Assembly (NCBI GenBank): GCA_050945235.1
Contig: JBMNSO010000002.1
Location: 1 to 36,724 of the forward strand
Reading direction: 5' to 3'
Length of the DNA stretch: 36,724 bases
Source of the DNA: Mahellales bacterium
Lineage (GTDB): Bacteria; Bacillota; Clostridia; DUOD01
In this document: positions 7,215 to 31,002 of the stretch, one piece after another
Numbering within the stretch: position 1 is the stretch's first letter
Layout of the letters: each line of letters starts with the position of its first letter
Program-made: the position numbers and the translations under genes
The notes under the pieces: generated by a model
The model's input: the letters and a program-made list of their open reading frames with translations, nothing else
Told to the model about the DNA's origin: nothing
Database searches by the model: none

Positions 7215-8419
7215 GCCTTTCCATATAGATCCATGAAAATGTCCTGTAGTTTTTCAACCAAAATATCAACATCGGATTTGGTTACTATCAACGGGGGTAC
7301 AAACCTTAAGGTATTATTACCGGCACAATTGATTAACAGTCCTTGCTCAAGGCACCTGTATACAATGTCCTTTCCGTCTATGGTGTTCTTTAACTGAAGG
7401 CCCAGCATCAGCCCCAGACCTCTGACATCGCAGATAAAATCAAACTGGTCTTTTAAATTCTGTAACCTGTCCTTTAAATATTGGCCGGTTTCTTGAACAT
7501 TATCCATAAATCCCGGCTTTAATATCGTTTCCAGAACGGTGCAGGCAGCGGTGCAGGCCAGCGGATTTCCACCGAAGGTGGAACCATGATCACCGGGTTT
7601 AAAGGCCGAGGCCACTTTTTCCTTGGCCACCAGGGCGCCGATGGGTACACCGCCCCCCAGACCCTTGGCCAGGGTAAATATATCCGGTTCAATATCAAAA
7701 TGCTGGTAGGCGAAGAGCTTACCTGTCCGGCCTATGCCTGTCTGTACCTCGTCAAATATCAGCAATATGCCTAGGTTATCACATAATTTTTTGACACCCT
7801 TGAGGTACCCGGTGTCCGCTACGCAGACCCCGCCTTCCCCTTGAATTACTTCTAACATTATGGCACAGGTATTATTTGATACTGCTTTTTCAAGAGCCGC
7901 CAGGTTGTTAAACTCCACATGCTTGAAACCTGGAGTTAAAGGCTTATATGGTAGTTGGTATTTTTGCTGACCGGTGGCTGCCAGGGTTGTCATTGTCCTT
8001 CCGTGGAATGAGTTTTGAAGGGTGATGATTTCATATTTATCCGTACCCATCTCCTTGAAGTATTTCCGTGCCAGCTTTATTGCTCCTTCATTGGCCTCGG
8101 CTCCGCTGTTGCAGAAGAATACCCTATTCCCGCAGCTGTTTTGGACTATTAGCCTTGCAGCCTCTGCCTGCTGCTCTATGTAATATAGGCTGGAGGTGTG
8201 TATCAGCCTTTCTACCTGTTCCTTTAAGACACCTGTCAGGGCTGGGTGATTATAACCCAGGCAATTGACGGCTATACCCGCCACGAAATCCAGATACTCG
8301 TTACCTTCGCTATCGTATAATCTTATACCCTCTCCCCTTTCAAAGGCTACCAGCAGCCTTTGACCGAAGGTATTGAAATAATATTTTTGATCCAAGTCTT
8401 GTATGGTCTTTATATCCAT
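7211..8419 (-). CDS. argD: Acetylornithine aminotransferase (class-III PLP aminotransferase)
   Basis: 402 aa with motifs FFCNSGAEANE, DEVQTGIGRTG and TLAKGLGGG (PLP lysine). GGGGGG ribosome-binding site before ATG 8419. Operon context with carAB-argF. Confidence 0.93.
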   Translation of the reverse strand: MDIKTIQDLDQKYYFNTFGQRLLVAFERGEGIRLYDSEGNEYLDFVAGIAVNCLGYNHPALTGVLKEQVERLIHTSSLYYIEQQAEAARLIVQNSCGNRVFFCNSGAEANEGAIKLARKYFKEMGTDKYEIITLQNSFHGRTMTTLAATGQQKYQLPYKPLTPGFKHVEFNNLAALEKAVSNNTCAIMLEVIQGEGGVCVADTGYLKGVKKLCDNLGILLIFDEVQTGIGRTGKLFAYQHFDIEPDIFTLAKGLGGGVPIGALVAKEKVASAFKPGDHGSTFGGNPLACTAACTVLETILKPGFMDNVQETGQYLKDRLQNLKDQFDFICDVRGLGLMLGLQLKNTIDGKDIVYRCLEQGLLINCAGNNTLRFVPPLIVTKSDVDILVEKLQDIFMDLYGKA

Positions 8420-8454
8420 TTAAAGGGTAGCCCCCCATCTATATTTTTTATAAT

Positions 8455-8472
8455 TATACATTAATATGTATA
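8455..8472. promoter_or_regulatory. Candidate ArgR operator (ARG-box-like 18-bp palindrome)
   Basis: tatacat-taat-atgtata is a perfect 7+7 inverted repeat with an AT core, 36-53 nt upstream of the argD ATG. It overlaps a minus-strand TATAAT. The layout (18 bp, T-N-T ... WWWW ... A-N-A) resembles the ARG box. Confidence 0.4.
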
Positions 8473-8595
8473 AAAATACAACAATTCCTTTATCGTTTTT
8501 TAAACTTACGGCTGTCGGTGGCTGAATTACTTATAATATTTAGGATGATTGTCTACAAGGACATTACAAAAATCACATAAATTGATTATTGTTTA

Positions 8596-8624
8596 TTGCA
8601 GTTTTTTCCTTGTAGATATAGAAT
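8596..8624 (+). promoter_or_regulatory. Candidate sigma-A promoter of the tsaE operon
   Basis: TTGCAG-17 nt-TAGAAT. The -10 lies within a 12-nt direct repeat, tatagaatgagt (8617-8628 and 8647-8658). Confidence 0.35.
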
Positions 8625-8712
8625 GAGTATAACAACTGCTTACTAGTATAGAATGAGTGATATAAGATATATTGGTTAAAATATACAGTAAGGATAAAAA
8701 AGGAGTGACAGG

Positions 8713-9186
8713 ATGGTTGAGATAACATCCACATCACCTGAGCAGACCGGTGCCATAGCCGCTTATATAGGTCAAATGCTGAGGAAAGGAGATATTCTGT
8801 GCCTGCAGGGCGACCTTGGTGCCGGCAAAACTGCCTTCACCCAGGGCTTGGCAAGGGGAATGGGAATAGAGGATTATGTGACCAGCCCTACCTTTACCAT
8901 TGTAAACGAATATCATGGTCCTACACCCCTTTACCATTTTGATGTATACAGGCTAACCCATGCCGATGAACTGTTTGATATCGGATATGAGGAATACTTC
9001 TATAGTGACGGTGTAGTGGTGGTTGAATGGCCGGAGAGGATTGTGGAACTGCTGCCTGAAGAAAAACTATGGATAAAGATAACCCATGGCAGTGGGGAAA
9101 ACATCAGGGTATTTCATATTAAAGGATGGGGCAAGAGATACGTAGAACTGGAGGAGGCTATAAAAAGTGTTAGTCCTGGCAATTGA
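8713..9186 (+). CDS. tsaE: tRNA t6A37 biosynthesis ATPase TsaE (YjeE)
   Basis: 157 aa with P-loop GDLGAGKT and SPTFTIVNEY. AAGGAG ribosome-binding site. First gene of the tsaE-tsaB-rimI-tsaD arrangement. Confidence 0.9.
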   Translation: MVEITSTSPEQTGAIAAYIGQMLRKGDILCLQGDLGAGKTAFTQGLARGMGIEDYVTSPTFTIVNEYHGPTPLYHFDVYRLTHADELFDIGYEEYFYSDGVVVVEWPERIVELLPEEKLWIKITHGSGENIRVFHIKGWGKRYVELEEAIKSVSPGN

Positions 9187-9892
9187 TACGTCATCCAATA
9201 CAGCATCGGCTGCCATAGCCGATGAGCAGAAGGTGATATGCGAGTATAACCTTAATCATAAAAAGACCCATTCCCAACGGCTGATGCCCATGGTGAATGA
9301 TATCATGAAGGATTGCGAGGTAAAGATTGAAGACATTGACTTGTTTGCCGTGGCCATGGGCCCCGGGTCCTTTACCGGGCTGAGGATAGGGGTAGCCACT
9401 GTAAAGGCTCTTGCCCACTGCATGTCAAAGCCTGTTATAGGAGTCTATACCTTAGATGGCCTGGCCTGCAACGGTGCGGGTTTTGACGGTTATATCTGCC
9501 CCATAATGGATGCCCGTCGGCAGCAGGTATATACCGGTATATATAGGTGGTCGGAGGATGGGCCACAGCTGGAGGGCGATTTTATGGCCCTGCCGGTTAA
9601 AGACCTTACCCGGCTCTTGAAGGACAAAGGGCAGAGGGTACTTATGGTGGGAGACGGTGTACCCGTTTATAAGGAGGTTATTATGGAAGAATTGGGTGAT
9701 GTAGTATTCTTCCCGCCGCCCAACCTAATGCTTCAAAGGGCATCATCCATAGCTTGGCTGGCTGTTAAAGGGTTTAACAGGGGGCAAACCCATGATGCCA
9801 TGACCCTGACGCCCTTTTATCTTAGAAAATCCCAGGCTGAGAGGGAACTAGAAAAAAAGTGTGCCTTAAGAGGGGATTGTTTTGGAGTATAG
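9167..9892 (+). CDS. tsaB: tRNA t6A37 biosynthesis protein TsaB (YeaZ)
   Basis: GTG start giving MLVLAIDTSS..., then GPGSFTGLRIG. Overlaps tsaE by 20 nt. GGAGGAGG ribosome-binding site upstream. Confidence 0.9.
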   Translation: MLVLAIDTSSNTASAAIADEQKVICEYNLNHKKTHSQRLMPMVNDIMKDCEVKIEDIDLFAVAMGPGSFTGLRIGVATVKALAHCMSKPVIGVYTLDGLACNGAGFDGYICPIMDARRQQVYTGIYRWSEDGPQLEGDFMALPVKDLTRLLKDKGQRVLMVGDGVPVYKEVIMEELGDVVFFPPPNLMLQRASSIAWLAVKGFNRGQTHDAMTLTPFYLRKSQAERELEKKCALRGDCFGV

Positions 9893-10337
9893 GGATATTG
9901 TGATTTCCGCCATGACATCGGAGGACATAGACCAGGTGCTGGACATTGAGAGGCTGTGCTTCAGCCTGCCATGGTCTGAAGAATCCTTTAGAATGGAAGT
10001 GGAGAAAAATCAATGCGCCAGGTATTTGGTAGCCCGAACCGGTAACCGGGTTATAGGTTATGTGGGTATGTGGGTAATCCTTGATGAGGGGCATATAACC
10101 AACCTTGCCGTTCATCCCGATTATAGGGGAAACAAGGTAGCCCTTAAACTGATGGAGAATCTTATAATCCTTGCAAGGAAAATGAGGATAGAAAAGCTGA
10201 CCCTGGAGGTCAGGAGCACCAATTTTATAGCCCAAAACCTGTATAAAAAGCTGGGGTTTTGTATTGCAGGGGTAAGGAAGGGATATTATGCCGATAACAA
10301 GGAGGATGCCTTAATAATGTGGAAAAAGGGCATATAA
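9882..10337 (+). CDS. rimI: Ribosomal-protein-alanine N-acetyltransferase (GNAT)
   Basis: 151 aa with ITNLAVHPDYRGNKVALKLM and NFIAQNLYKKLGF. Canonical position between tsaB and tsaD. Start is uncertain (TTG 9882, GTG 9900 or ATG 9912, all in frame). Confidence 0.8.
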   Translation: MEYRDIVISAMTSEDIDQVLDIERLCFSLPWSEESFRMEVEKNQCARYLVARTGNRVIGYVGMWVILDEGHITNLAVHPDYRGNKVALKLMENLIILARKMRIEKLTLEVRSTNFIAQNLYKKLGFCIAGVRKGYYADNKEDALIMWKKGI

Positions 10338-10368
10338 ATACATATGTTGAGAGGGGATGAAGGCATAA

Positions 10369-11283
10369 GTGAGAATTAAAGAAAGACTAAATATTAAGGA
10401 CCCCCAGGCCTTAACCGATAAATTAGGGGATTTTATAAAAAATACAATGGAAAGGTATAACCGTGAAGGCTGTATACTGGGAAACAGCGGGGGTATAGAC
10501 TCAGCACTGGTAGCCTTTTTGGCTGTAAGGGCCCTGGGCAAAGACAGGGTCGAGATGCTGTTCCTACCGGAGCGGGACAGCAGCGGCAAGAGCTATCATG
10601 ATGCCCTTGAAGTATCTGATGCCCTTGGCGTACCCATGAAGGAGATAAGCATAACACCGTTGCTTAAAAAGATTGGTGTATACAGGCTGGAACCTTCACC
10701 ATTATTTATACCCAGAAGCATACAGGAAAGGTATGTAGCCAATAAGCATAAAAAATATGACGATGAAAAAGGTACCACCTTTATAAAGACGCTGAAAGGC
10801 GGTGTGGGCAATCCCCAACTGCAAAGGGATATTGCGTATTACCGTATCAAACACCGCTTGAGGATGGCTATCCTTTATTATTATGGTGAAATGAAAAACT
10901 ATATGGTACTGGGCACAAGCAACAGGAGCGAAAAAATGACCGGACTTTTTGTTAAATATGGCGATGGTGCCTCAGACCTTGATCCAATAGCAGGTCTATA
11001 TAAAACTCAGGTGTTTGAGCTGGCTGAATTTCTCAATGTACCCCGATCCATTATAGAAAAGGCACCGACTCCCGATCTGGCTCCGGGATTGACCGATGAA
11101 CAGACCCTGAACTTAAGTTACGACAAACTTGACATTATACTGGCAGGACTGGATATGGGTATGGAAAAAGGGGATATAGCCCGGGAAGCGGGAGTAGAGA
11201 TATCGTCAATCGACTATGTTAAACAACTGACAGATGTGTCATGGCATATGCGAAACCTCCCCCTTGAACCTGACAATATATAA
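10369..11283 (+). CDS. nadE: NH3-dependent NAD+ synthetase-like PP-loop ATP pyrophosphatase
   Basis: 304 aa with PP-loop GNSGGIDSA, GTSNRSE and a C-terminal PTPDLAPGLTDEQTLNLSYDKLD segment typical of NadE. GTG start. Confidence 0.8.
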   Translation: MRIKERLNIKDPQALTDKLGDFIKNTMERYNREGCILGNSGGIDSALVAFLAVRALGKDRVEMLFLPERDSSGKSYHDALEVSDALGVPMKEISITPLLKKIGVYRLEPSPLFIPRSIQERYVANKHKKYDDEKGTTFIKTLKGGVGNPQLQRDIAYYRIKHRLRMAILYYYGEMKNYMVLGTSNRSEKMTGLFVKYGDGASDLDPIAGLYKTQVFELAEFLNVPRSIIEKAPTPDLAPGLTDEQTLNLSYDKLDIILAGLDMGMEKGDIAREAGVEISSIDYVKQLTDVSWHMRNLPLEPDNI

Positions 11284-21324: not shown

Positions 21325-23961
21325 TTGAATGTTGGAATAATAAGAACCATTTCTGAAAAGTGTGCCCAGTGCTATTCATGCGTGAGAAACTGTCCGGTAA
21401 AGGCGGTAAAGATCAATAACGGTCGTGCCCAGGTAATCCAGGAAAGGTGTATACATTGTGGCAACTGCGTCAAGATATGCTCAAGACAGGCTAAAGAGAT
21501 ATACGACGGAATAAATCCAACCTTGGAAATGATAAGCAAAGGCAGATGCATAGCGATCATTGCCCCCTCCTTTCCAGCAGTATACAAGGAAAACCACGAC
21601 AGGGTGGCAGCCGGGTTAAAGAAACTGGGTTTCAGCGAGGTATGGGAAGTTGCGGTAGGTGCAGAACTGGTAGCCCAGGCATATCAGCAATTGAACTTTA
21701 GTAACGGATGTTATATCAGCTCTGCCTGCCCAGCTGTAATTAACTTGGTACAGAAACACTATCCGAATCTTATATCCAACCTGGTGCCGGTGGTTTCCCC
21801 TGCCATTGCCACCGGTAGGCTCATTAGGCATCTATATGACGATCAGGATTTTAACATTGTCTTTATTGGACCCTGTATAGCTAAGAAAGGTGAAATCAGG
21901 GATCCTGAAGTATCAGGCGTAATAGACGAGGTATTAACCTTTGACGAACTGAATTCCTTGTTCCAAAGGCAGTCCATTGACCTGGGTTCATTGGAAAAGG
22001 TATCCTTTGACGGGTTGAATGCTTCCCTGGCATATCTTTTTCCCCTGTCCGGGGGTTTATTAAAAAACCTTAGCCAACAAAGTGATCTGCTCAACGATAA
22101 TTATATGGTGGTAGACGGGAGCAGCTCAATCAAAGAGATATTCAATAGCCTTAACGACTATAAAGAAAAGATTAATCTCATCGACTGCCTCTTTTGCTCC
22201 GGTTGTATAAATGGACCTTCTGGGGGTAGCGGTGGTAATATCCTGGCAAAGAAACAGGAAATAATATACTATATGAAGTCTATACCCATCGAAGAGCAAG
22301 CACGGGCCAAAAAGGAATTGCTAAGTATACAGCTGGATCTTAAGCGGAATTTTTGCTATAGTGGTCTACGCCTGCCTGCCCCAAGGGAAGAAGACATAAG
22401 AAAGGTTTTAACACAAATCGGGAAAAACACCGACGAGGATCTTTTAAACTGTGGAGCTTGTGGGTATTCCTCTTGCAGGGAAAAGGCCATAGCCGTGTGC
22501 CAGGGCATCGCTGAAAAGGAGATGTGCATGCCCTTTCTCTTGTCCCAGAAGAATTACCTGTTATCGGCACTGGAGGATGAACTGTCAAAGATAAAGGAAT
22601 TGAAGGAAGAGTTGGATATAATAATAGATTCTTCTTACGACGGCATTTGCTTAACCGACGGTAGTGGGGAGGTGCTAAGGACCAACAATGCCTTTGCTAA
22701 GATGCTGCAGTTAAAACCGGAGGACATTACGGGGTTATCCATAAGGGACTTGGAAAAGAACGGTATGATCCACCCTTCTGCTACCATGATGGTGTTGAAA
22801 GCCCGCAAACCCGTTACTTTTCTCCAAGGCTTAAAGTCTGGTAAGCAAGTATTGGCCACCGGTGTCCCTGTATTCGATGAAGCAGGAAATGTAAGCAAGG
22901 TTATAACCAATATAAGGGACTTTGAAGAATTACAAAGAATAAAACGGCGGTTGGATGAGGTGAATTATTCCAACAATGGAATAGAGGATGGAAGGGCGAA
23001 TAAAAAGGCTGAGGCAAAGATAATAGCCTTTAGCGACGTGTTTGGCGAGGTATTGGATTTAGCCAATAGAATAGCCAACGTGGATTCTACAGTATTGGTG
23101 CTGGGAGAATCCGGTGTGGGCAAGGAGGTCATAGTAAGGTATATCCATAGAATAAGCAACAGATCCGACAAACCCTTTGTTAAAATCAATTGTGGCGCTC
23201 TGCCGGAATCGTTAATAGAATCGGAACTTTTCGGGTACGATACCGGCGCCTTCACCGGTGCAAAAAAACAGGGTAAACCGGGATTGTTTGAACTGGCGGA
23301 CAAGGGCATATTATTTCTTGATGAGATAGGGGAACTTCCCCTATCCCAACAGGTGAAGCTGTTACAGGCCATACAGGAAAAAAGGATTGTACGGGTGGGG
23401 GGAACCAAACCCATACCAATAGATGTGAGGATAATAGTGGCTACCAACAGGGACTTGGCAAGGATGGTAAAAAACGGCGAGTTTAGGGCCGATCTTTATT
23501 ACAGGCTCAACGTTGTTCCCATAACCATTCCACCCTTAAGAAAGAGAAGGGATGATATTATTCCCTTGGCTCGCCATTTCTTAAAGGTTTATAACACCAA
23601 GTATTCTACCAGTAGAGAAATTTCCCAACAGGTCAAGGATAGATTCCTCGAATATAAATGGCCGGGCAATGTAAGGGAATTGGAAAATATAATGGAAAGG
23701 CTGGTAGTTACGGCTTCAAGCGATATTATCACCGAAGAAGACCTTCCCCCTGTATTAAAAACTCCTGTGGATACACAGACCGGGTCCGGGAAGGAAATCA
23801 CCCTCCTGCCCCTTAAGAAGGCACTGGAGGAAAGGGAAAAGGAACTGATACTCCAGGCAAGGCAGTTATACGATAGCACCTATAAGATAGCTGAAGTTCT
23901 TGAAGTTAACCAGTCCACCATCGTTAGAAAATTGCAGAAATACCGAAAGGAGGATAAATAA
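21325..23961 (+). CDS. Sigma-54-dependent transcriptional activator with an N-terminal sensory [FeFe]-hydrogenase-like domain and PAS
   Basis: CAQCYSCVRNCP and CIHCGNCVKIC (2x[4Fe-4S]). H-domain-like motifs SSACP, GPCIAKKGE and CSGCINGP. CGACGYSSC-x16-C. PAS (aa ~430-540). AAA+ module with GESGVGKE, GAFTGA and ESELFGY. C-terminal HTH YKIAEVLEVNQSTIVRKL. TTG start after GAGGGGGA. Confidence 0.9.
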   Translation: MNVGIIRTISEKCAQCYSCVRNCPVKAVKINNGRAQVIQERCIHCGNCVKICSRQAKEIYDGINPTLEMISKGRCIAIIAPSFPAVYKENHDRVAAGLKKLGFSEVWEVAVGAELVAQAYQQLNFSNGCYISSACPAVINLVQKHYPNLISNLVPVVSPAIATGRLIRHLYDDQDFNIVFIGPCIAKKGEIRDPEVSGVIDEVLTFDELNSLFQRQSIDLGSLEKVSFDGLNASLAYLFPLSGGLLKNLSQQSDLLNDNYMVVDGSSSIKEIFNSLNDYKEKINLIDCLFCSGCINGPSGGSGGNILAKKQEIIYYMKSIPIEEQARAKKELLSIQLDLKRNFCYSGLRLPAPREEDIRKVLTQIGKNTDEDLLNCGACGYSSCREKAIAVCQGIAEKEMCMPFLLSQKNYLLSALEDELSKIKELKEELDIIIDSSYDGICLTDGSGEVLRTNNAFAKMLQLKPEDITGLSIRDLEKNGMIHPSATMMVLKARKPVTFLQGLKSGKQVLATGVPVFDEAGNVSKVITNIRDFEELQRIKRRLDEVNYSNNGIEDGRANKKAEAKIIAFSDVFGEVLDLANRIANVDSTVLVLGESGVGKEVIVRYIHRISNRSDKPFVKINCGALPESLIESELFGYDTGAFTGAKKQGKPGLFELADKGILFLDEIGELPLSQQVKLLQAIQEKRIVRVGGTKPIPIDVRIIVATNRDLARMVKNGEFRADLYYRLNVVPITIPPLRKRRDDIIPLARHFLKVYNTKYSTSREISQQVKDRFLEYKWPGNVRELENIMERLVVTASSDIITEEDLPPVLKTPVDTQTGSGKEITLLPLKKALEEREKELILQARQLYDSTYKIAEVLEVNQSTIVRKLQKYRKEDK

Positions 23962-24001: not shown

Positions 24002-24019
24002 TAATGCAATGTTGCATTA
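24002..24019. promoter_or_regulatory. Candidate enhancer (UAS 1) for the sigma-54 activator
   Basis: Perfect palindrome taatgcaa-tg-ttgcatta, about 126 nt upstream of the -12 element. Confidence 0.55.
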
Positions 24020-24056
24020 CTTCAAGATGCGGATTATTACTCTTTTCCAGTGCTGT

Positions 24057-24074
24057 TAATGCAATAGTGCATCA
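24057..24074. promoter_or_regulatory. Candidate enhancer (UAS 2)
   Basis: taatgcaatagtgcatca has the same left half-site and a degenerate right half. Its centre is 55 nt from the UAS 1 centre (about 5 helical turns) and about 71 nt from the -12 element. Confidence 0.5.
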
Positions 24075-24093
24075 ATAAACAGTAATATTCTGT

Positions 24094-24121
24094 AAAACAA
24101 GGCTAATAGCCTTGTTTTTTA
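24094..24121 (+). terminator. Intrinsic terminator of the regulator gene
   Basis: acaaggct-aat-agccttgt stem-loop followed by tttttt. It ends one base before the -24 element. Confidence 0.75.
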
Positions 24122-24122
24122 T

Positions 24123-24138
24123 TGGCATGAAAGTTGCA
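24123..24138 (+). promoter_or_regulatory. Sigma-54 (-24/-12) promoter of the hydrogenase operon
   Basis: TGGCAT-gaaag-TTGCA matches TGGCAC-N5-TTGCW with correct GG/GC spacing. It lies 60 nt upstream of ATG 24198. Confidence 0.8.
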
Positions 24139-24197
24139 TCTATATAATAGTAGAGTCAAATCAAAAATTGGCAAATGAAAGGAAGGGGAGTATTTCG

Positions 24198-24707
24198 ATG
24201 AGTGTGACCTTTCAGCAGGGAGAACAGGAAGAAATCAGGCTGGTGGAAGAAATAATATCTGCATATGAAGACAAGCCGGGATCTTTGATACCGGTACTCC
24301 ATGAGACTCAAAAGGTACTGGGCTTTTTACCCCGGTGGGCCCAGGAAAGGATTGCCGAAAGGCTTAATATCAATTCCAGTGAAGTAAACAGTGTGGTAAG
24401 TTTTTACTCATTATTTTCCGAAAAGCCCAAGGGCAAGTACTGTATAGGGGTTTGTAAGGGTACTGCCTGTTATGTAAGGGGCTCGGAGGAAATAATCAAA
24501 AAACTGGAAAAGGAACTGGGGATTGAAGTGGGCGATACAACAGATGACGGTAAGTATTCTCTGGAGGTACTAAGATGCCTTGGGGCATGCGGGCTGGGGC
24601 CTGTTGTTACGGTAAACGAGAGGGTGTATACCAGGATGAAACCCGAAAAGGTGCGGGATATGCTACAGGATATCGATGATATGGAAAAAAGGGGTGAGGA
24701 GTCGTGA
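24198..24707 (+). CDS. NuoE/HndA/HydC-like [2Fe-2S] hydrogenase subunit
   Basis: CKGTAC ... CLGAC (NuoE-type Cx4C...Cx3C). GGAAGGGGAG ribosome-binding site 7 nt before ATG 24198; the TTG at 24168 has no ribosome-binding site. Confidence 0.88.
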   Translation: MSVTFQQGEQEEIRLVEEIISAYEDKPGSLIPVLHETQKVLGFLPRWAQERIAERLNINSSEVNSVVSFYSLFSEKPKGKYCIGVCKGTACYVRGSEEIIKKLEKELGIEVGDTTDDGKYSLEVLRCLGACGLGPVVTVNERVYTRMKPEKVRDMLQDIDDMEKRGEES

Positions 24708-25072
24708 CAGGTATGGATGTTTACAATCGGCTGCGGGAAAACCTAATGAAGGACCGGGAAAGTGAACAAAGGGAATGGGTTATCAATGTACAGCTGGGGA
24801 TGTGCTGTTCAAGCGGTAGGGGGTTCGAACTCCTCAATACCATTCGAAAAACCATTGAAGAGAATTATCTTGATAATATAACGGTACGCAGTACCGGTTG
24901 TATGGGTATGTGCAGTTATGAACCGATTATGGAGGTAGCAGGTCCAAGGCAGCAGTCGGTTACCTATTGCATGGTTACGCCTCAAAGGGCTAGGTTAATA
25001 GTTTTAAACCATATTCTAAAGGGTATTGTAATTAAACCATGGACACTGGAAGGAAAGGGCGTGGGGTTATAA
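24704..25072 (+). CDS. Small thioredoxin-like [2Fe-2S] ferredoxin subunit (HndB-like)
   Basis: 122 aa with CCSSG ... GCMGMCSYEP. Overlaps both neighbours. Same position as hndB in the hndABCD order. Confidence 0.7.
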   Translation: MTGMDVYNRLRENLMKDRESEQREWVINVQLGMCCSSGRGFELLNTIRKTIEENYLDNITVRSTGCMGMCSYEPIMEVAGPRQQSVTYCMVTPQRARLIVLNHILKGIVIKPWTLEGKGVGL

Positions 25073-28000
25073 TGGGCTTTATCAGAAATCATGTTCTAGT
25101 TTGTGGCGGAGGCGGTTGTCATTCATCAGGCACTTCAGATCTGGTTGCCCGCCTTAATGAGGAAATCGCAAAAAAGGGTTTGCAAGATGAGATAAAGGTG
25201 GTTGTTACCGGTTGTATGGGCCTGTGCGCCTTAGGCCCGGTTATGATCATTTATCCCGAGGGAGTATTCTATAAAAAGGTAGCTGTTGAAGACATACCCG
25301 AGATAGTGGACCAACATTTATACTTGGGTATAACCGTAGAGAGGTTGTTATACGAGGATCCCGAGGATGGAAGGAAGCTCCCCACCATCAGGGATATACC
25401 CTTTTTCGCAAAGCAGAAAAAAATAGTTCTGAGAAACGTGGGACTTATAGATCCCCATAGGATAGAAGAATATATTGCCTTTGACGGGTATTTTGCCCTG
25501 GCAAAGGTATTGTCTTCCATGAAGCCGGAGGATGTCATCCAAGAGATGATAAAATCAGGTCTTAGAGGCAGGGGGGGTGCAGGTTTTCCCACAGGCCTTA
25601 AGTGGAAGTTTACTGCCCAGGCCAAGGGTGATGTGAAATACGTAACCTGTAATGCCGATGAAGGTGACCCCGGAGCCTATATGGACAGGAGTATAATAGA
25701 AGGCGATCCCCATACATTGATAGAGGGTATGGCCATTGCCGGCTATGCCATCGGCTCCAACCAGGGATATGTTTATATTAGGGCGGAATATCCCATGGCT
25801 GTGGAGAACTTATCGAGGGCTATTGAGCAGGCAAAGAGCTATGGCCTATTAGGTGAAAACATAATGGGCTCGGGTTTTGATTTTGATCTTGAGATAAGGG
25901 TAGGTGCCGGTGCCTTTGTCTGCGGTGAGGAAACTGCCCTGTTGGCTTCTATAGAGGGTAGGAGGGGTGAACCTCGGCCCAAACCGCCCTTCCCGGCTAA
26001 CCAAGGTCTGTGGGATAAGCCCACACTGTTAAGTAATGTGGAGACGTATGCTAATGTTGCTCCCATTATACTGAAGGGTGCCGAATGGTTTAAGAGCATT
26101 GGAACGGACAAGAGCCCTGGTACTAAGGTATTTGCCTTGGCCGGAAATGTAAGAAATACCGGGCTGGTGGAAGTGCCCATGGGTACACCCTTAGGTGATA
26201 TTATATATGACATCGGAGGGGGCATAATAGACGGGAAGCCCTTTAAAGCTGCCCAAACCGGGGGGCCGTCGGGGGGCTGTATTCCAAAAAACGAATTAAA
26301 TGTGCCGGTAGATTATGAGTCTTTGACCGAGCTGGGAACCATTATGGGTTCCGGTGGCCTTATTATAATGGATGAGGATACTTGTATGGTGGACCTGGCA
26401 AAATTCTTTTTGGATTTTGTTCAGGAGGAATCTTGCGGTAAATGTACGCCCTGTCGTGTAGGTACCAGGCGCATGAAGGAGATACTGGAGAGGATTACCC
26501 GGGGCGAAGGCCGGGAGGGTGATATTGAGACCCTGGAAAAACTGGGTAACGAGATAATAGACACTGCCCTTTGTGGGTTAGGTCAAACAGCCCCCAAGCC
26601 TGTCCTCAGCACCATAAAATATTTCAGGGACGAATATGAGGCCCATATCAAGGACAAAAAATGCCCATCTTCCCTGTGCGCTTCATTATTTACTTCACCC
26701 TGTGCCAATGCATGTCCGGCGGGGGTAGATGTACCCAGATATATAGAGTACATTCAAAGGGGATTGTATTATAAAGCGGTGGAGGTCATTAAAGAGAAAA
26801 ATCCTTTGCCGGCTATCTGCGGCCGAATATGCCACAGCCCCTGTGAGGATAAGTGTAGGCGTGCACAGGTGGATGAACCCATGGCCGTTAGGTATTTAAA
26901 GAGGTTTGCTTCCGATTATGAACAGAAAAACTGGGAGAATATATATTTCAATAACCTCCCGTCCAAGAGCGAAGTGGTTAAGGACAAAAAGGTTGCCATC
27001 GTAGGTGCCGGCCCGGCAGGGCTGACTGCGGCTTATTATCTGGCCCGATGGGGCTATCCTGTTACAATATTTGAACAATACGAGGTATTGGGCGGTATGC
27101 TGGCCCTGACTATTCCGGAGTACCGTTTGCCCATGGATGTACTGCAAAAGGAGATTGAGCATATTCTGGCATATGGAGTCGATGTCGTGACAGGAGTAAA
27201 GCTGGGAAGGGATATCCAGCTGAAAGAGCTTAGGGAGCAATACGATGCCGTATTTCTTGCCTTAGGTGCCCATAGATCATTGAACCTCGGTATCCCAGGG
27301 GAGGATGCGGAGGGTGTAATAGATGCACTGACCTTTTTAAAGGCTGTACGTTTGAACCAACCGGTTTCCCTGGGTAAAAGGGTAGCGGTGGTTGGTGGCG
27401 GTAATTCCGGTATTGATGCAGCACGAGTTGCCTTAAGAAAGGGAGCGGAGGATGTATCGATCCTGTACAGGAGGAAGAAGTACGACATGCCGGCTCAGCA
27501 CCATGAGATCGAGGAAGCTACCAAGGAAGGAATAGCTATCCATGAACTTATTACCCCGGTCAGGGTATTGACTGACGATAATAATAAGGTAATAGGTCTG
27601 GAATGCGTAAAAATGGAAATGGGCAAGTTCGACAGCTCAGGCAGGAGAAGGCCTCAGCCCATACCCAATTCTAATTTCATAGTGGATGTGGATACAGTAA
27701 TAGTTGCCATAGGCATGGCCTGTGACGTAAAAGGTATAGACATGGAATCCATTAGAAGGGACTATAAGGATATTCTTCAGGTGGACCATAAAACCATGAT
27801 GAGTGACCTCGACGGTGTATTTGCCGGGGGTGACTGTGTAAACGGGGCGGATTATGTAATAAACGCCATTGCAGATGGAAGGAGAACAGCCTTTTCCATT
27901 GACAGTTTTTTAGGCGGGCGCCAAAGGGAACTGGAAAAGGAACAGAAAATTGAACGGAAGGTCTTCGGTGAAATTATAGAAAAGCCAATGGCCAGGGTCA

Positions 28001-28119
28001 AAACCGAACTGTTGCTGGTGGATAAACGAACAAGAAACTTTTGCGAAGTAGAACTGTGTATGGGCGAAGAAGAGTGCAAAAAAGAGGCCTCCAGATGTCT
28101 GCGCTGTGATGTTAAATAA
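25072..28119 (+). CDS. NuoF/HndC/HydB-like flavoprotein subunit fused to a C-terminal GltD/NfnB-like NAD(P)H:FAD oxidoreductase module
   Basis: N-terminal CGGGGC...GCMGLC ([2Fe-2S]). GRGGAGFPTGLKWKF (FMN/NADH site). ESCGKCTPCR ([4Fe-4S]). From about 26660: CANACPAG, NPLPAICGRICHSPCEDKCRR, VAIVGAGPAGLTAAYYL (FAD) and VAVVGGGNSGIDAAR (NAD(P)H). ATG 25072 overlaps the preceding stop (TAATG). Confidence 0.88.
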   Translation: MGFIRNHVLVCGGGGCHSSGTSDLVARLNEEIAKKGLQDEIKVVVTGCMGLCALGPVMIIYPEGVFYKKVAVEDIPEIVDQHLYLGITVERLLYEDPEDGRKLPTIRDIPFFAKQKKIVLRNVGLIDPHRIEEYIAFDGYFALAKVLSSMKPEDVIQEMIKSGLRGRGGAGFPTGLKWKFTAQAKGDVKYVTCNADEGDPGAYMDRSIIEGDPHTLIEGMAIAGYAIGSNQGYVYIRAEYPMAVENLSRAIEQAKSYGLLGENIMGSGFDFDLEIRVGAGAFVCGEETALLASIEGRRGEPRPKPPFPANQGLWDKPTLLSNVETYANVAPIILKGAEWFKSIGTDKSPGTKVFALAGNVRNTGLVEVPMGTPLGDIIYDIGGGIIDGKPFKAAQTGGPSGGCIPKNELNVPVDYESLTELGTIMGSGGLIIMDEDTCMVDLAKFFLDFVQEESCGKCTPCRVGTRRMKEILERITRGEGREGDIETLEKLGNEIIDTALCGLGQTAPKPVLSTIKYFRDEYEAHIKDKKCPSSLCASLFTSPCANACPAGVDVPRYIEYIQRGLYYKAVEVIKEKNPLPAICGRICHSPCEDKCRRAQVDEPMAVRYLKRFASDYEQKNWENIYFNNLPSKSEVVKDKKVAIVGAGPAGLTAAYYLARWGYPVTIFEQYEVLGGMLALTIPEYRLPMDVLQKEIEHILAYGVDVVTGVKLGRDIQLKELREQYDAVFLALGAHRSLNLGIPGEDAEGVIDALTFLKAVRLNQPVSLGKRVAVVGGGNSGIDAARVALRKGAEDVSILYRRKKYDMPAQHHEIEEATKEGIAIHELITPVRVLTDDNNKVIGLECVKMEMGKFDSSGRRRPQPIPNSNFIVDVDTVIVAIGMACDVKGIDMESIRRDYKDILQVDHKTMMSDLDGVFAGGDCVNGADYVINAIADGRRTAFSIDSFLGGRQRELEKEQKIERKVFGEIIEKPMARVKTELLLVDKRTRNFCEVELCMGEEECKKEASRCLRCDVK

Positions 28120-28139
28120 CAGGGGTAGGAGGGGAGATA

Positions 28140-29861
28140 ATGAGTATGATAGAGTTAACCATTGATAACAAAAGGATCAAAATCAATAAAGATAGTACTA
28201 TTTTGGAAGCCGCCAGGCATGCAGGCATAACTATACCGACCCTTTGCTATTTGGAGGGAGTGAACCAGATAGGCAGCTGTCGGGTATGCGTTGTTGAAGT
28301 TAAGGGTGCCAAGAACCTGGTACCCTCCTGTATAACAAAGGTGCAGGATGGTATGGAGGTGGTTACCAATTCCGAAAGGGTGCGCAGCGCCCGCAGGACT
28401 ATGGTGAATTTATTACTGTCCAACCACCCTGACGACTGCCTGGCCTGCGGCAAGAACCAGAAGTGTGAGTTACAGAAACTGGCACACCAGCTTAATATAA
28501 GGGAAAACCCCTTTGAAGGCCAACCGTCGAAGGCTGTGTATGATGACAGTAGCCCGGCCATAATAAGGGATTCATCGAAATGTATTTTGTGTAGGCGCTG
28601 TCTGACGGTTTGTAACAGCATACAGAAAGTGGGTGTTATAGCACCCCTGGGTAGAGGTTATGACACAGTTATATCCCCTGCCTATGGCCAGCCTATAATG
28701 GAGGCCACATGTGTACAATGCGGACAGTGCACCACGATTTGCCCTACCGGTGCGTTAATGGAGAGATCCTATATAGAGGATGTGTGGGGTGCCTTGGCCG
28801 ATCCGTCAAAACATGTGGTTGTTCAGATAGCTCCAGCAATAAGGGCATCCATAGGCGAATGTTTCGGCTATGAACCGGGGACCGTGCTAACCGGTAAGCT
28901 GGTTAGCGCAGTAAAAGCCTTAGGCTTTGACAAGGTATTCGATACCAACTTCACTGCGGACCTTACCATAATGGAAGAGGGTTCAGAACTACTCCATAGG
29001 ATAAAAAGCGGCGGGAAGCTTCCCATGATAACTTCATGCAGCCCTGGGTGGATAAACTTTGTGGAGCAGTTCTACGGCGATATTTTAGGGCATATATCTA
29101 CATGCAAATCCCCACAGCAGATGTTCGGTCCAGTAATAAAGACCTATTACGCCCAGAAGATGGGAATAGACCCTAATAATATTTACAGTGTTTCGGTAAT
29201 GCCCTGTACCGCTAAAAAGTATGAGGCCCGGAGGGAGGAAATGCGGTCCAGCGGTTTTTGGGATGTGGATGCGGTTTTAACCACCCGGGAACTGGCTGCC
29301 ATGATCAATGAAGCGGGCATTCAGATGGATAAAATAGAGGAGCAGCACTTTGATATACCCTTCGGAGAGGGTAGCGGTGCCGGTGCAATATTCGGCAATA
29401 CCGGCGGTGTGATGGAGGCCGCCCTGAGGACCGTTTATAAGCTGGTGACCGGCAATGAACTTGAAAACATTGAACTGACCGATGTCCGTGGCCTTGAGGG
29501 CGTTAAGGAAGCCACAATAAACCTGGAAGGTAAGGATGTATCGGTGGCAGTGGTCCATGGCTTGGGAAACATTAGGGAGATATTGGATCAGATAAGGGAG
29601 GGTAAAAGTCCCTATACCTTCATTGAGGTTATGTGCTGTCCCGGCGGATGTATAGGTGGTGGAGGTCAACCCATACCCACTAATGATGAAATAAGGAAAA
29701 AGAGGATAGAGGGTTTGTATAAAGCGGACCGTAACCTGGAATTTAGGCGTTCCCATGAGAATCCGTATGTACAAATGCTTTATGAAGAATTCTTGGGTGC
29801 ACCTTTAGGTGAAATGTCCCATAAATTACTCCATACCCATTATAAAGACAGACGAATATAA
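28140..29861 (+). CDS. hydA: [FeFe]-hydrogenase catalytic subunit (M3 architecture, HndD/HydA-like)
   Basis: N-terminal 2Fe-2S, HPDDCLACGKNQKC, CILCRRCLTVC and CVQCGQCTTICP. H-cluster motifs ITSCSPGW (L1 variant), MPCTAKKYE (L2) and EVMCCPGGCIGGGGQP (L3). AGGAGGGGAG ribosome-binding site. Confidence 0.93.
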   Translation: MSMIELTIDNKRIKINKDSTILEAARHAGITIPTLCYLEGVNQIGSCRVCVVEVKGAKNLVPSCITKVQDGMEVVTNSERVRSARRTMVNLLLSNHPDDCLACGKNQKCELQKLAHQLNIRENPFEGQPSKAVYDDSSPAIIRDSSKCILCRRCLTVCNSIQKVGVIAPLGRGYDTVISPAYGQPIMEATCVQCGQCTTICPTGALMERSYIEDVWGALADPSKHVVVQIAPAIRASIGECFGYEPGTVLTGKLVSAVKALGFDKVFDTNFTADLTIMEEGSELLHRIKSGGKLPMITSCSPGWINFVEQFYGDILGHISTCKSPQQMFGPVIKTYYAQKMGIDPNNIYSVSVMPCTAKKYEARREEMRSSGFWDVDAVLTTRELAAMINEAGIQMDKIEEQHFDIPFGEGSGAGAIFGNTGGVMEAALRTVYKLVTGNELENIELTDVRGLEGVKEATINLEGKDVSVAVVHGLGNIREILDQIREGKSPYTFIEVMCCPGGCIGGGGQPIPTNDEIRKKRIEGLYKADRNLEFRRSHENPYVQMLYEEFLGAPLGEMSHKLLHTHYKDRRI

Positions 29862-29865
29862 CAAT

Positions 29866-29908
29866 AAAACAAAGGACGGCCTGTACTTCAAGGCCGTCCT
29901 TTGTTTTT
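29866..29908. terminator. Bidirectional intrinsic terminator between hydA and folT
   Basis: 16-nt arms, aaaacaaaggacggcc and ggccgtcctttgtttt, with a T-run on the plus strand and an A-run that reads as a T-run on the minus strand. Confidence 0.85.
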
Positions 29909-30448
29909 CTATCTATGCTTGGGAACAATTTTATATAACATTTTTGTTAGCATACTAATTATCATAACATAAACTGGAATGAGTACAAGCCGTGTGATTA
30001 TCCTGGGGGGTAGGAATACCAGGAAGGATTTATCGAAGTACAGGGTCAGCCAGTAGGTGTTTAAGAATATGTTGGCAATTAAATCTGTTATGGCTATTAC
30101 TCCTAGTAAAGAAAGCCATGTCCATTCTTCCCTTTGCCTCAAGATAGCAAATAATCCGGGTATCATTCCGGTAAGCATGGCCGATACGGTAAAACCGGGG
30201 AAATAGGCCCCGCCCATGGGATTGATTAAGTAACCGATGATATCTGCCATAAAACCGGTAGCACCGCCGAATATAGGACCCAATAGCAAACCGCTGAATA
30301 TAATCGGTATTTCACCAAAACTTAGGCGCAGGGCCAGGGCACCGCCTATGGGTACCGTTGTACCTAAAAACCTGGTTAGTACTATGCTGGTAGCGGTAAG
30401 CAATGCGGCATAGGCTATTCTCCTGCTTTTATTTATATCATTCAACAA
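29909..30448 (-). CDS. folT: Folate-family ECF transporter S component
   Basis: Multi-TM protein (AYAALLTATSIVLTRF..., SFGEIPIIFSGLLLGP). AAGGAGG lies 8 nt before TTG 30448. Preceded by a THF riboswitch. Confidence 0.8.
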   Translation of the reverse strand: MLNDINKSRRIAYAALLTATSIVLTRFLGTTVPIGGALALRLSFGEIPIIFSGLLLGPIFGGATGFMADIIGYLINPMGGAYFPGFTVSAMLTGMIPGLFAILRQREEWTWLSLLGVIAITDLIANIFLNTYWLTLYFDKSFLVFLPPRIITRLVLIPVYVMIISMLTKMLYKIVPKHR

Positions 30449-30530
30449 TAAAAGCACCTCCTTTCTCTTTGAATGGCAAAGATACCACATCAAAGAGATT
30501 GCCGGTACTTTTAATCATTCTTTGACATGG

Positions 30531-30623
30531 GCAGCGGACGCAGTATTGTACCGCAGGCCATAGGCCTTTCGTTTAAGGGCAACTTCCCATCCCTTAACAC
30601 TTAACGCACAATACCTACTCTGC
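30531..30623 (-). promoter_or_regulatory. THF (tetrahydrofolate) riboswitch
   Basis: The minus strand reads GCAGAGUAGGUAUUGUGCGUUAAGUGUUAAGGGAUGGGAAGUUGCCCUUAAACGAAAGGCCUAUGGCCUGCGGUACAAUACUGCGUCCGCUGC. This aligns block for block with the Eubacterium siraeum THF aptamer as I recall it (AGAGUAG..GCGUUAAGUGU..GGGAUG..ACGAA..GCGGU..UCCGCU). Confidence 0.9.
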
Positions 30624-30645
30624 TCATTCAATATCAATTACAAAA

Positions 30646-30925: not shown

Positions 30926-31002
30926 GCTGATGTAGCTCAGTAGGTAGAGCACTTCCTTGGTAAGGAAGAGGTTCACGGGTTCGATTCCCGTCATCAGCTC
31001 CA
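30926..31002 (+). tRNA. tRNA-Thr (anticodon GGU) with encoded CCA
   Basis: Hand-folded cloverleaf: acceptor GCTGATG/CATCAGC, D arm GCTC-AGTAGGTA-GAGC, anticodon arm CTTCC-TTGGTAA-GGAAG, T arm ACGGG-TTCGATT-CCCGT. The variable region appears to be 6 nt. Confidence 0.85.

Follow-up and report, generated by a model that had tools for sequence, protein, structure and literature searches.

The stretch of DNA analyzed here (the window, 36,724 nucleotides on the forward strand of contig JBMNSO010000002.1, assembly GCA_050945235.1, from a Mahellales bacterium of the Bacillota) contains, at 24168-29861, four genes that would encode a four-subunit [FeFe]-hydrogenase of the Bfu/HydABC type, composed of HydC, a small HndB-like protein, a fused HydB and the catalytic subunit HydA. 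The subject of this work is the third gene, in which a HydB-type flavoprotein is joined to a second flavoprotein module of the GltD type. As the original prediction had it, positions 25072 to 28119 of the forward strand form a single stop-free open reading frame (ORF) of 1015 amino acids (aa), and its ATG shares the string TAATG with the stop codon of the gene upstream. An in-frame ATG at 25039 was discarded as the start, given that the homologues, and also HydB of Acetobacterium woodii (7q4v_B), align from residue 1 of the protein that begins at 25072. The gene and its parts, including the sites for flavin mononucleotide (FMN) and flavin adenine dinucleotide (FAD), are the following, all on the forward strand.

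25072-28119, forward: putative fused flavoprotein of 1015 aa, HydB/BfuB core plus GltD-like NADP(H) module
25072-25350, forward: N-terminal thioredoxin-like [2Fe-2S] domain, residues 1-93, B5 site (Pfam match at residues 5-81; Cys 11, 16, 48 and 52)
25450-26649, forward: NuoF-type core, residues 127-526, with the FMN/NAD(H) site, SLBB domain and [4Fe-4S] cluster B1 (NCBIfam nuoF_fam, 1.6e-156)
26644-26679, forward: putative ligands of the Zn hinge (B2), H525, C531 and C536, with C403 further upstream; end of the homology with HydB (by equivalence with Thermococcus sibiricus NfnB)
26695-26931, forward: Fer4_20-type domain for two [4Fe-4S] clusters, residues 542-620, including the predicted Lys-ligated proximal cluster C548/C587/C591/K610 (Pfam Fer4_20, 2.5e-21)
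26986-27912, forward: Rossmann domains predicted to bind FAD and NAD(P)H, residues 639-947, with GAGPAG, GGGNSG, Y799-R800-R801 and R685 (Pfam Pyr_redox_2, 1.5e-34)
27994-28110, forward: C-terminal tail, residues 975-1013, ending in RCLRC (aligned with the ends of the StnC/NfnA modules)

Scans with profile hidden Markov models, proposed beforehand as a check, found the NuoF-type domains followed by the Fer4_20 and Pyr_redox_2 domains in one protein. The Pfam order is 2Fe-2S_thioredx (residues 5-81), Complex1_51K (161-330), SLBB (354-402), NADH_4Fe-4S (441-525), Fer4_20 (534-620) and Pyr_redox_2 (639-936), with scores well over the cut-off except for two small domains that are barely over it, and NCBIfam recognizes NuoF at 127-526 and PRK12771 (“NAD(P)-binding protein”) at 497-1012. 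Every NuoF and GltD motif of the original prediction could be located in the translation, i.e., GRGGAGF (166-172), ESCGKCTPCR (453-462), GAGPAG (645-650) and GGGNSG (775-780), and the point from which the second module had been proposed to start, about nucleotide 26660, corresponds to residue ~530, where the homology with HydB stops. In the AlphaFold2 monomer model (mean predicted local distance difference test score [pLDDT], 83.7; predicted template modeling score [pTM], 0.71), the tail is confident (residues 971-1010, pLDDT 89-94) and the linker at residues 535-540 is poor (pLDDT <50), which is consistent with a hinged domain. No solved chain covered both halves of this model in Foldseek (best TMq, 0.51). 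The name that such fused proteins currently receive in the databases, “NADH-quinone oxidoreductase subunit NuoF,” conceals the second site.

The fusion is widespread. Among the matches listed in a search of 5.8 billion proteins, at least 120 homologues of ~1010 aa have 57-91% identity and the same Pfam content; they include Thermanaeromonas toyohensis, Lucifera butyrica and Thermovenabulum, together with metagenome-assembled genomes (MAGs) of Moorellales, Peptococcaceae and Chloroflexota. The survey of its phylogenetic distribution that the original prediction had called for revealed a recurrence across many bacterial phyla plus one Thermoplasmata archaeon. A query spanning the junction found matches in Bacillota, Chloroflexota, Spirochaetota, Omnitrophota, Aminicenantes, Neomarinimicrobiota, Stahlbacteria, Desulfatiglans and the Thermoplasmata archaeon, and 18 further ORFs containing the full junction were found in other phyla. 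An informal count, read off the table of matches to a library clustered at 50% identity, gave ~10-20 representatives, out of the best 150, that span both halves. The chance that adjacent hydB and gltD-like genes were merely joined by a frameshift or another sequencing or assembly error is negligible, since the same unbroken layout is kept in >130 independent assemblies, among them the complete genomes of T. toyohensis (LT838272.1) and Zhaonella formicivorans (CP085524.1), and unfused relatives (Stn loci) are laid out differently, with ~500 nucleotides of extra domains between both parts. Another set of proteins (P0213, P0217, P0219, P0220, P0235, P0241, P0247, P0251 and P0267), ~650 aa long, match only residues ~405-1012 of the query and consist of the C-terminal [4Fe-4S] helical domain of NuoF, the hinge and the GltD module, without the FMN domain (compare PRK12771).

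Domain replacement at the hinge of HydB

Residues 1-536 are, by homology, a complete core of the bifurcating HydB/BfuB type, with the [2Fe-2S] domain, FMN/NADH site, B1 and Zn hinge. Residues 1-541 match the solved bifurcating B subunits, namely 7q4v_B (A. woodii HydB, 1.6e-245, 62% identity), 7t2r_B ([NiFe]-Bfu), 8a6t_B (Thermoanaerobacter kivui), 8oh5_B (StnB) and 9n5u_B (NfnB), and comparison of the AlphaFold2 model with solved B chains gave TMt values of 0.80-0.89 in Foldseek. Ligand conservation was counted in an alignment of 139 full-length fused sequences, two of them from complete genomes. The cysteines of the N-terminal [2Fe-2S] site (11, 16, 48 and 52) are kept in 128-137 of the 139, the B1 ligands (Cys 455, 458, 461 and 501) are invariant, and the equivalents of the Zn hinge (C403, H525, C531 and C536) are kept in 138-139. 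These last four residues reproduce the ligand pattern of the Zn (B2) site of T. sibiricus NfnB, which is formed by C437, H524, C529 and C534.

The FMN pocket retains K177 and E286/E287, which are invariant, as is the GRGGAGF loop; the equivalents of these residues have been reported to bind the ribose of NADH and to disfavor or exclude NADPH. All the markers that Losey et al. (2020) gave for bifurcating HydB are also present. They comprise A or E and M at positions 232 and 234 of Thermotoga maritima HydB, F at 367 and GGPSG in the SLBB region, and the window protein has A and M in DPGAYMD, F282 in GAGAFVCGEE (kept in all 139 fused homologues) and GGPSG at 397-401, with the positions equated by motif context and not by alignment of T. 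maritima HydB itself.

The homology also supports the claim that the usual C-terminal ferredoxin-like domain of HydB/HndC, with its two [4Fe-4S] clusters, has been replaced by a second flavin and nucleotide module. Residues 1-535 are 71.4% identical to the canonical 597-aa HydB of the Desulfofundulus type and 67.7-69.2% identical to other fused proteins, i.e., the canonical HydB is as close or closer. The alignment with canonical HydB breaks 5-8 residues past the last hinge cysteine, C536. The window protein reads CPSSLCASLFTSP and then CANACPAG, the canonical one reads CPAGVCRALMVYAVDEEKCTGCGRCALVCPAG, and past the junction the former has the PCxxxCP of the GltD module where the latter has CxxCxxCxxxCP motifs. 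Because the divergence starts so close to the hinge, the part that has been swapped is, on this alignment, only the ~60-aa B3/B4 domain, for a 470-aa module with FAD, NAD(P)H and two [4Fe-4S] cluster sites. Pfam and motif scans detected no Fer4-type motifs after residue 536 of the window protein; the canonical relatives at three loci (L085, L086 and L018) do carry the CX2CX2CX3CP-type motifs of B3/B4.

Both kinds of HydB are found with the same HydA lineage and in the same operon layout, the fused one of ~1010 aa in Zhaonella and the canonical one of 597 aa, with a terminal Fer4 dicluster domain, at a Desulfofundulus-type locus and a Tepidanaerobacteraceae locus. In neighbor-joining trees (no bootstrap), the fused modules split cleanly from the StnC-type modules (58 versus 54), yet the canonical HydB cores nest among the fused cores, so that a single origin of the fused core is not supported. 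The combination of nested cores and a single group of modules is suggestive of repeated exchange of the C-terminal module, or of its movement by recombination. One Aminicenantes locus (L018, 4050-10738) has the fused BC pair and then a second, canonical set of NuoE, HydB (616 aa, with a Fer4 domain) and NuoG-like genes, and its two B cores are each other's closest relatives in the neighbor-joining tree.

As the likeness to Stn and Nfn proposed in the original prediction would lead one to expect, residues 542-1013 have their closest solved relatives in the GltD-like inserts of the A subunits of Bfu-type transhydrogenases (9bov_A, residues 102-567, 8.7e-120; 9n5u_A; 8oh5_C). The E values against these StnC/NfnA modules range from 1e-98 to 1e-120, and NfnL, GltD and DPD are matched less well. 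The predicted ligands of the proximal cluster, C548, C587, C591 and K610, align with Cys108, Cys147, Cys151 and Lys170 of Caldicellulosiruptor saccharolyticus NfnA, which ligate its A7 cluster. C544, C548, C587, C591 and C595 are invariant among the fused homologues, and K610 is found in 135 of the 139. At this last position, the fused protein has LKRF in the alignment where NfnL has LERF, the Glu of which is a cluster ligand of NfnL. The last 40 residues (from RNFCEVEL to EASRCLRCD) align with the ends of the StnC/NfnA modules and weakly with the N termini of NfnL and NfnB, and for this reason we read them as the segment with which the GltD iron-sulfur domain normally begins, circularly permuted to the C terminus, where the RCLRC tail would complete the distal [4Fe-4S] cluster. 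All of the 136 ungapped homologues have C1009 and C1012. C991, C996 and C1002 were considered as ligands of an additional cluster and rejected, as they are not conserved in the alignment. With a Lys-ligated proximal cluster and a permuted RCLRC tail, the module is, to judge from its sequence, of the Stn/NfnABC type, and the same two traits rule out an NfnSL-type module.

R685, the counterpart of an Arg near N5 of FAD in NfnB, and Y799-R800-R801 (138-139 of the 139) are invariant or nearly so. The Rossmann strand of the FAD site ends in YRR, as in the aligned relatives, including the NADPH users StnC, NfnA of NfnABC, Nfn and GltD. Such a strand end indicates NADPH, and we infer that NADPH is the nucleotide bound at the FAD site.

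Hydrogenase subunits, regulation and other catalytic partners

The neighbors of the fused gene are those of the original prediction according to Pfam and NCBIfam, i.e., a NuoE/HoxE-like subunit, a small thioredoxin-like protein and an [FeFe]-hydrogenase, and the order of the four genes (NuoE-like, small protein, fused gene, HydA) is repeated in T. toyohensis, Z. formicivorans and L. butyrica. The other features of the operon and of the region before it are the following.

24168-24707, forward: HydC/BfuC (NuoE/HoxE-like), with a predicted [2Fe-2S] cluster C1 (Pfam 2Fe-2S_thioredx, 3.9e-51, residues 26-169; NCBIfam HoxE, NuoE)
24704-25072, forward: small HndB-like thioredoxin-fold protein, 122 aa (weak matches to 2Fe-2S_thioredx and to clostridial 2Fe-2S ferredoxin)
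28140-29861, forward: HydA, [FeFe]-hydrogenase catalytic subunit of the M3 type, 573 aa (NCBIfam “FeFe_hydrog_A6,” 911.9 bits with a cut-off of 765)
29866-29907, strand not assigned: hairpin with a 17-bp stem and runs of A and T on either side, at the operon end
21325-23961, forward: regulator with a HydS-like domain, PAS, sigma-54 AAA+ activator and helix-turn-helix domains (Pfam Fe_hyd_lg_C 75-298, FeS 374-403, PAS 429-532, Sigma54_activat 567-733, HTH_50 830-873)
24123-24138, forward: candidate sigma-54 (-24/-12) promoter, TGGCATGAAAGTTGCA, 30 nucleotides 5' of the first operon gene

The HydC-like subunit has cysteines at 92, 96, 101, 137 and 141 and the small HndB-like protein at 34, 35, 66, 70 and 89; the gene of the latter is found with equal size and position in fused and canonical operons alike. 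HydA has the Pfam domains Fe_hyd_lg_C, Fe_hyd_SSU, Fer2_4 and NADH-G_4Fe-4S_3 (HPDDCLACGKNQKC) and a dicluster domain, and its best solved match is T. kivui HydA1 (8a6t_A). Its L1, L2 and L3 motifs read TSCSPGW, MPCTAKKYE and EVMCCPGGC (L1 at residues 296-304, L3 at 496-507), where the group A motifs are TSCCPxW, MPCxxKxxE and ExMACxxGCxxG. The Ser of L1 presumably takes the position that in CpI and CrHydA1 belongs to a Cys ligand of the [4Fe-4S]H subcluster, and all the solved structures aligned have CC there. TSCSP is found in 118 of the 120 closest homologues, and for this reason TSCSPGW is, on the homologue alignment, a lineage trait and not a defect. It was rejected as a marker of the fusion, since these close homologues share it and the lineage also pairs with canonical 597-aa HydB. 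The extra Cys of L3 (MCCPGGC) is not conserved.

The hairpin after HydA is probably a two-way terminator that closes the operon, and it is followed by a convergent transporter gene. This gene (29909-30493, reverse strand) encodes the S component of an energy-coupling factor transporter, converges on the hydrogenase operon and has a tetrahydrofolate riboswitch on its 5' side (30530-30624, reverse strand, 86 bits). A tRNA gene is located nearby (30926-30999, forward strand). In four operons, fused and canonical (L001, L084, L085 and L086), an extra gene of ~185 aa with a HATPase_c domain lies between the NuoE-like and HndB-like genes, and HydS-like, DRTGG and PHP genes lie upstream; the window operon was recorded as having neither these nor the HATPase_c gene.

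The regulator has an L1-like motif SSACP, with the proton-relay Cys changed to Ala, an L2-like motif GPCIAKKGE and an L3-like motif DCLFCSGC. In the known sensory classes (HydDB C1-C3), the hydrogenase goes together with a kinase, a chemotaxis protein or a phosphatase. The window protein, with its domains, may be a sigma-54 activator that senses H2, and a like regulator adjoins the operon in Thermanaeromonas (L001, 13056-15347) and Lucifera (L003, 4074-6734). The element TGGCATGAAAGTTGCA is the sole match to TGGCAYN5TTGCW in the window, where 0.15 would be expected by chance, and the operon is probably expressed from it under the control of the adjacent HydS-like activator. Conservation of the promoter in relatives is weakly supported, with one weaker, degenerate GG-N10-GC element upstream of the Lucifera operon and no sigma-54 site found upstream of the Thermanaeromonas operon. 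Two palindromes of the type TGCAAT-N-(T/G)TGCA, near 24006-24075, are candidate activator binding sites, and a separate hairpin, AACAAGGCT-AAT-AGCCTTGTT followed by a T run (~24097-24122), seems to terminate the regulator gene.

At seven loci of other phyla (L006, L008, L012, L019, L020, L023 and L028), the pair of NuoE and fused NuoF-GltD genes precedes genes other than hydA, and in the Aminicenantes locus it is followed by a second BC pair.

L008 (Dehalococcoidia), 7655-10366, and L019 (Spirochaetota), 7709-10378: FdhA-type protein (NuoG-like plus molybdopterin) after the fused B gene
L006 (Chloroflexia MAG), 7707-9265, and L012 (Dehalococcoidales MAG), 7677-9219: MetV and MetF (methylene-tetrahydrofolate [methylene-THF] reductase) after the fused B gene
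L020, 7632-10007, and L023, 7713-10005: small NuoG-like protein and Glu_synthase-domain protein after the fused B gene
L028 (Thermoplasmata), 7653-9643: NuoG-like protein and [NiFe] large subunit after the fused B gene
L018: second, canonical BC pair in tandem after the fused B gene

Because the same pair precedes Fdh, MetV/MetF, [NiFe] and Glu_synthase-like genes, the gene neighborhoods fit a general NAD/NADP core made of NuoE and the fused B subunit with exchangeable third-substrate modules, which parallels the classification of the Bfu family.

A possible NADP(H)-linked branch and its alternatives

In Bfu enzymes, the FMN, B1 and the cluster C1 of HydC/BfuC form the bifurcation site, and the C1 domain swings to B3/B4, which reduce ferredoxin. 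The B3/B4 cysteines are conserved in all characterized bifurcating HydB proteins, and B2-B5 are absent from non-bifurcating homologues. In T. sibiricus NfnABC, ferredoxin docks ~12.8 Å from B3/B4, and the 4C/4A mutant of B4 lost bifurcation (0.76 versus 17.2 U/mg) and kept the dye-linked activity. There is still debate on how bifurcation takes place at the FMN of Bfu/HydABC and on how the low-potential electron travels through the mobile domain of HydC and B3/B4 to ferredoxin. The window protein retains B1, B2 (Zn) and B5, and in the place of B3/B4 it has two GltD-type clusters leading to FAD and a nucleotide site.

The reading that we favor, tentatively and as somewhat short of probable, is that of a Bfu-type hydrogenase in which NAD(H) would react at FMN and NADP(H) at FAD, giving two pyridine-nucleotide sites per complex, and in which NADP(H) would substitute for ferredoxin at the end of the low-potential branch. 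The proposed reaction would be 2 H2 + NAD+ + NADP+ <-> NADH + NADPH + 2 H+. The linkage of H2 to both nucleotides, the transhydrogenase activity and the second bifurcation site raised in the original prediction are taken here as hypotheses. In the forward direction, the exergonic reduction of NAD+ would aid the formation of NADPH at low H2 and, in reverse, NADPH would help drive the oxidation of NADH toward H2. The GltD clusters would have to come within electron-transfer range of the HydC cluster, as the scheme supposes. The more specific version, a ferredoxin-free Bfu branch in which the low-potential output of the FMN “flavobicluster” would be wired to NADP(H) via the hinged GltD module, is conceivable and, in our judgment, on the doubtful side. 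We calculated the equilibrium H2 with E' of ~-280 mV for NAD and ~-370 mV for NADP and an E0' of -414 mV for H2, and obtained ~3 Pa for NADH alone, ~100 Pa for NADH plus NADPH and ~0.15 bar for NADH plus ferredoxin (-500 mV). With such values, a coupling of NADH and NADPH would be physiologically meaningful in both directions.

Several points weigh against this reading. The structural model is that of a monomer, the arrangement of the GltD clusters with respect to the HydC cluster and FMN being a supposition of the scheme, and the specificity for NADPH is read solely from a motif that is common to the relatives. In Stn/NfnABC, the homologous module feeds a mid-potential path through BfuA and not the low-potential branch. 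In NfnSL, ferredoxin is reduced by way of GltD-type [4Fe-4S] clusters, and by this analogy the fused enzyme could still use it; for an archaeal relative, Greening et al. (Cell 2024, PMC11216029) predicted that electrons leave this domain to ferredoxin. Every true Bfu enzyme has B3/B4 by the definition of Schut et al. (2022), so that a loss of bifurcation in the fused enzyme is possible. In the literature searched, we found no biochemical study of a NuoF-GltD subunit, though one published elsewhere is possible.

The alternative that survives best is rather unlikely in our estimation. With B3/B4 lost, the enzyme would be a plain NAD(P)H-dependent hydrogenase, without bifurcation, and NADH at FMN and NADPH at FAD would each exchange electrons with the H-cluster independently. 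It draws on the conservation of the B3/B4 cysteines in all characterized bifurcating HydB proteins, on the definition of Bfu enzymes by B3/B4 and on the name “NADH-dependent [FeFe] hydrogenase, group A6,” under which NCBI lists the lineage of the partner HydA. However, the core keeps all the residue markers of bifurcation, the N-terminal [2Fe-2S] domain and the Zn hinge, features absent in non-bifurcating homologues, and the HydA of the same lineage also pairs with canonical HydB of the bifurcating type.

Slightly less likely again is a second bifurcation site like that of Nfn. The FAD of the GltD module would then bifurcate, with ferredoxin docking on the distal [4Fe-4S] cluster of the module and the electrons of NADPH split between the HydB/HydC chain and ferredoxin, and the enzyme would handle H2, NAD(H), NADP(H) and ferredoxin together. 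In NfnSL, the two [4Fe-4S] clusters of the GltD-like subunit are indeed the low-potential route to ferredoxin, the acceptor that was also assumed for the archaeal relative (PMC11216029), and R685 is invariant. Nevertheless, the signatures of the module (Lys and not Glu as ligand, permuted tail) are those of Stn/NfnABC, where the FAD is described as a plain entry point for NADPH, and there was no partner similar to NfnS or PyrK among the window ORFs scanned.

An improbable option is that the GltD-like module does not use NADPH at all and binds NADH, or hands electrons to a glutamate-synthase-type partner or to polysulfide. GltD-like modules serve many acceptors and some of them use NADH, and a Glu_synthase-domain gene follows the fused gene in the MAGs of Aminicenantales (L020) and Neomarinimicrobiota (L023). 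Against it stand the nearly universal Y799-R800-R801, as in the relatives that use NADPH, and the absence of any glutamate-synthase-like gene in the window operon.

The fused layout is common and so not exotic, and it has a direct bearing on how the low-potential branch of Bfu enzymes functions. What has changed is the ferredoxin-reducing domain, swapped for an NADPH-flavin module, in a protein whose remaining core is ~70% identical to canonical enzymes; the 597-aa and ~1010-aa HydB, in operons with HydA of the same lineage, are a matched pair for experiments. If NADP(H) were the low-potential partner, the H2 thresholds for the re-oxidation of NADH would change (~100 Pa versus ~3 Pa with NADH alone) and anaerobes would have a ferredoxin-independent route from H2 to NADPH, and the finding of this core next to Fdh and MetFV genes in Chloroflexota would be relevant to how redox balance is kept in the Wood-Ljungdahl pathway. 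If the branch were ferredoxin-free, one BC core would distribute the electrons of H2 over the pools of NAD and NADP, with formate as the source or methylene-THF as the recipient in other phyla. It would be an unrecognized ferredoxin-free way of making NADPH or balancing NADH and NADPH, and a natural test of the role of B3/B4.

Relation to known systems

The operon logic is that of HydABC (A. woodii 7q4v, T. kivui 8a6t, T. maritima 7p5h) and of HndABCD of Desulfovibrio fructosovorans, with NuoE-like, small thioredoxin-like and NuoF-like subunits and HydA. The subunits of HndABCD are a NuoE-like protein, a small thioredoxin-like protein, a NuoF-like protein with two C-terminal [4Fe-4S] clusters and HydA; the gene order and three of the subunits fit the window operon, and the C-terminus of the HndC type is not present. 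The FMN/NADH site, B1, N-terminal [2Fe-2S] domain, Zn hinge and marker residues are shared with HydABC and the Bfu family. Considering the features of this family one by one, the window has an FMN/NAD(H) site and B1 in BfuB (Complex1_51K, NADH_4Fe-4S, the four invariant B1 cysteines), B5 and the hinge B2 (three Cys and one His, for Zn or a cluster), cluster C1 in BfuC (HydC, 3.9e-51) and the NuoG-like N-terminal chain of BfuA (Fer2_4, NADH-G_4Fe-4S_3 and dicluster domains of HydA). The C-terminal domain with two CX2CX2CX3CP motifs (B3/B4), which for Schut et al. (2022) is a defining one and the site of ferredoxin reduction, is absent from the window protein, and the Fer4_20/GltD module is found instead.

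A link to the poorly understood glutamate-synthase-linked [FeFe]-hydrogenases had also been proposed, but it did not hold. According to the HydDB rule for group A2, the protein downstream of HydA has a GltA/GltD domain and no NuoF domain, while in the window a single protein, encoded upstream of HydA, unites NuoF and GltD, and a terminator and a convergent transporter gene come after HydA. Membership in group A2 was thus rejected.

A passing mention of an archaeal protein by Greening et al. (Cell 2024, PMC11216029) was the only description of such a subunit in the literature searched. It refers to a HydB with a “glutamate synthase (GltA) domain” in the AlphaFold model of a hybrid group F [FeFe]/[NiFe] hydrogenase, which is likewise a NuoF-like protein with a GltD-type domain in a hydrogenase complex. 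That work deals with archaeal hybrid complexes; the replacement at the hinge, the derivation of the module from the Stn type and the group A operons of bacteria lie outside its scope, as does the biochemistry of the HydB subunit. In the Thermoplasmata locus L028, the fused subunit lies beside a gene for the [NiFe] large subunit; its identity with the published hybrid group F complex could not be confirmed, and a pyruvate kinase gene follows the large-subunit gene.

NfnSL/NfnAB and GltD share the fold and the cofactors with the module (FAD, NADPH site and two [4Fe-4S] clusters), with 37-39% identity to NfnL. However, NfnL has a Glu ligand and an N-terminal RCLxC where the window module has a Lys ligand and a C-terminal RCLRC, and no NfnS (PyrK-like) or GltB partner was found among the window ORFs scanned. 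The module is most similar to that of Stn/NfnABC (Sporomusa ovata 8oh5, C. saccharolyticus 9bov, T. sibiricus 9n5u), which also joins an NADPH-FAD site to a BfuBC core; in both, the proximal cluster has a Lys ligand and the tail, RCL(x)C, is permuted. Stn/NfnABC contains no hydrogenase, carries the module as an insert in the NuoG-like BfuA and retains B3/B4 in BfuB, whereas the window enzyme has the module on BfuB, where the hinge is, and a true HydA as its BfuA.

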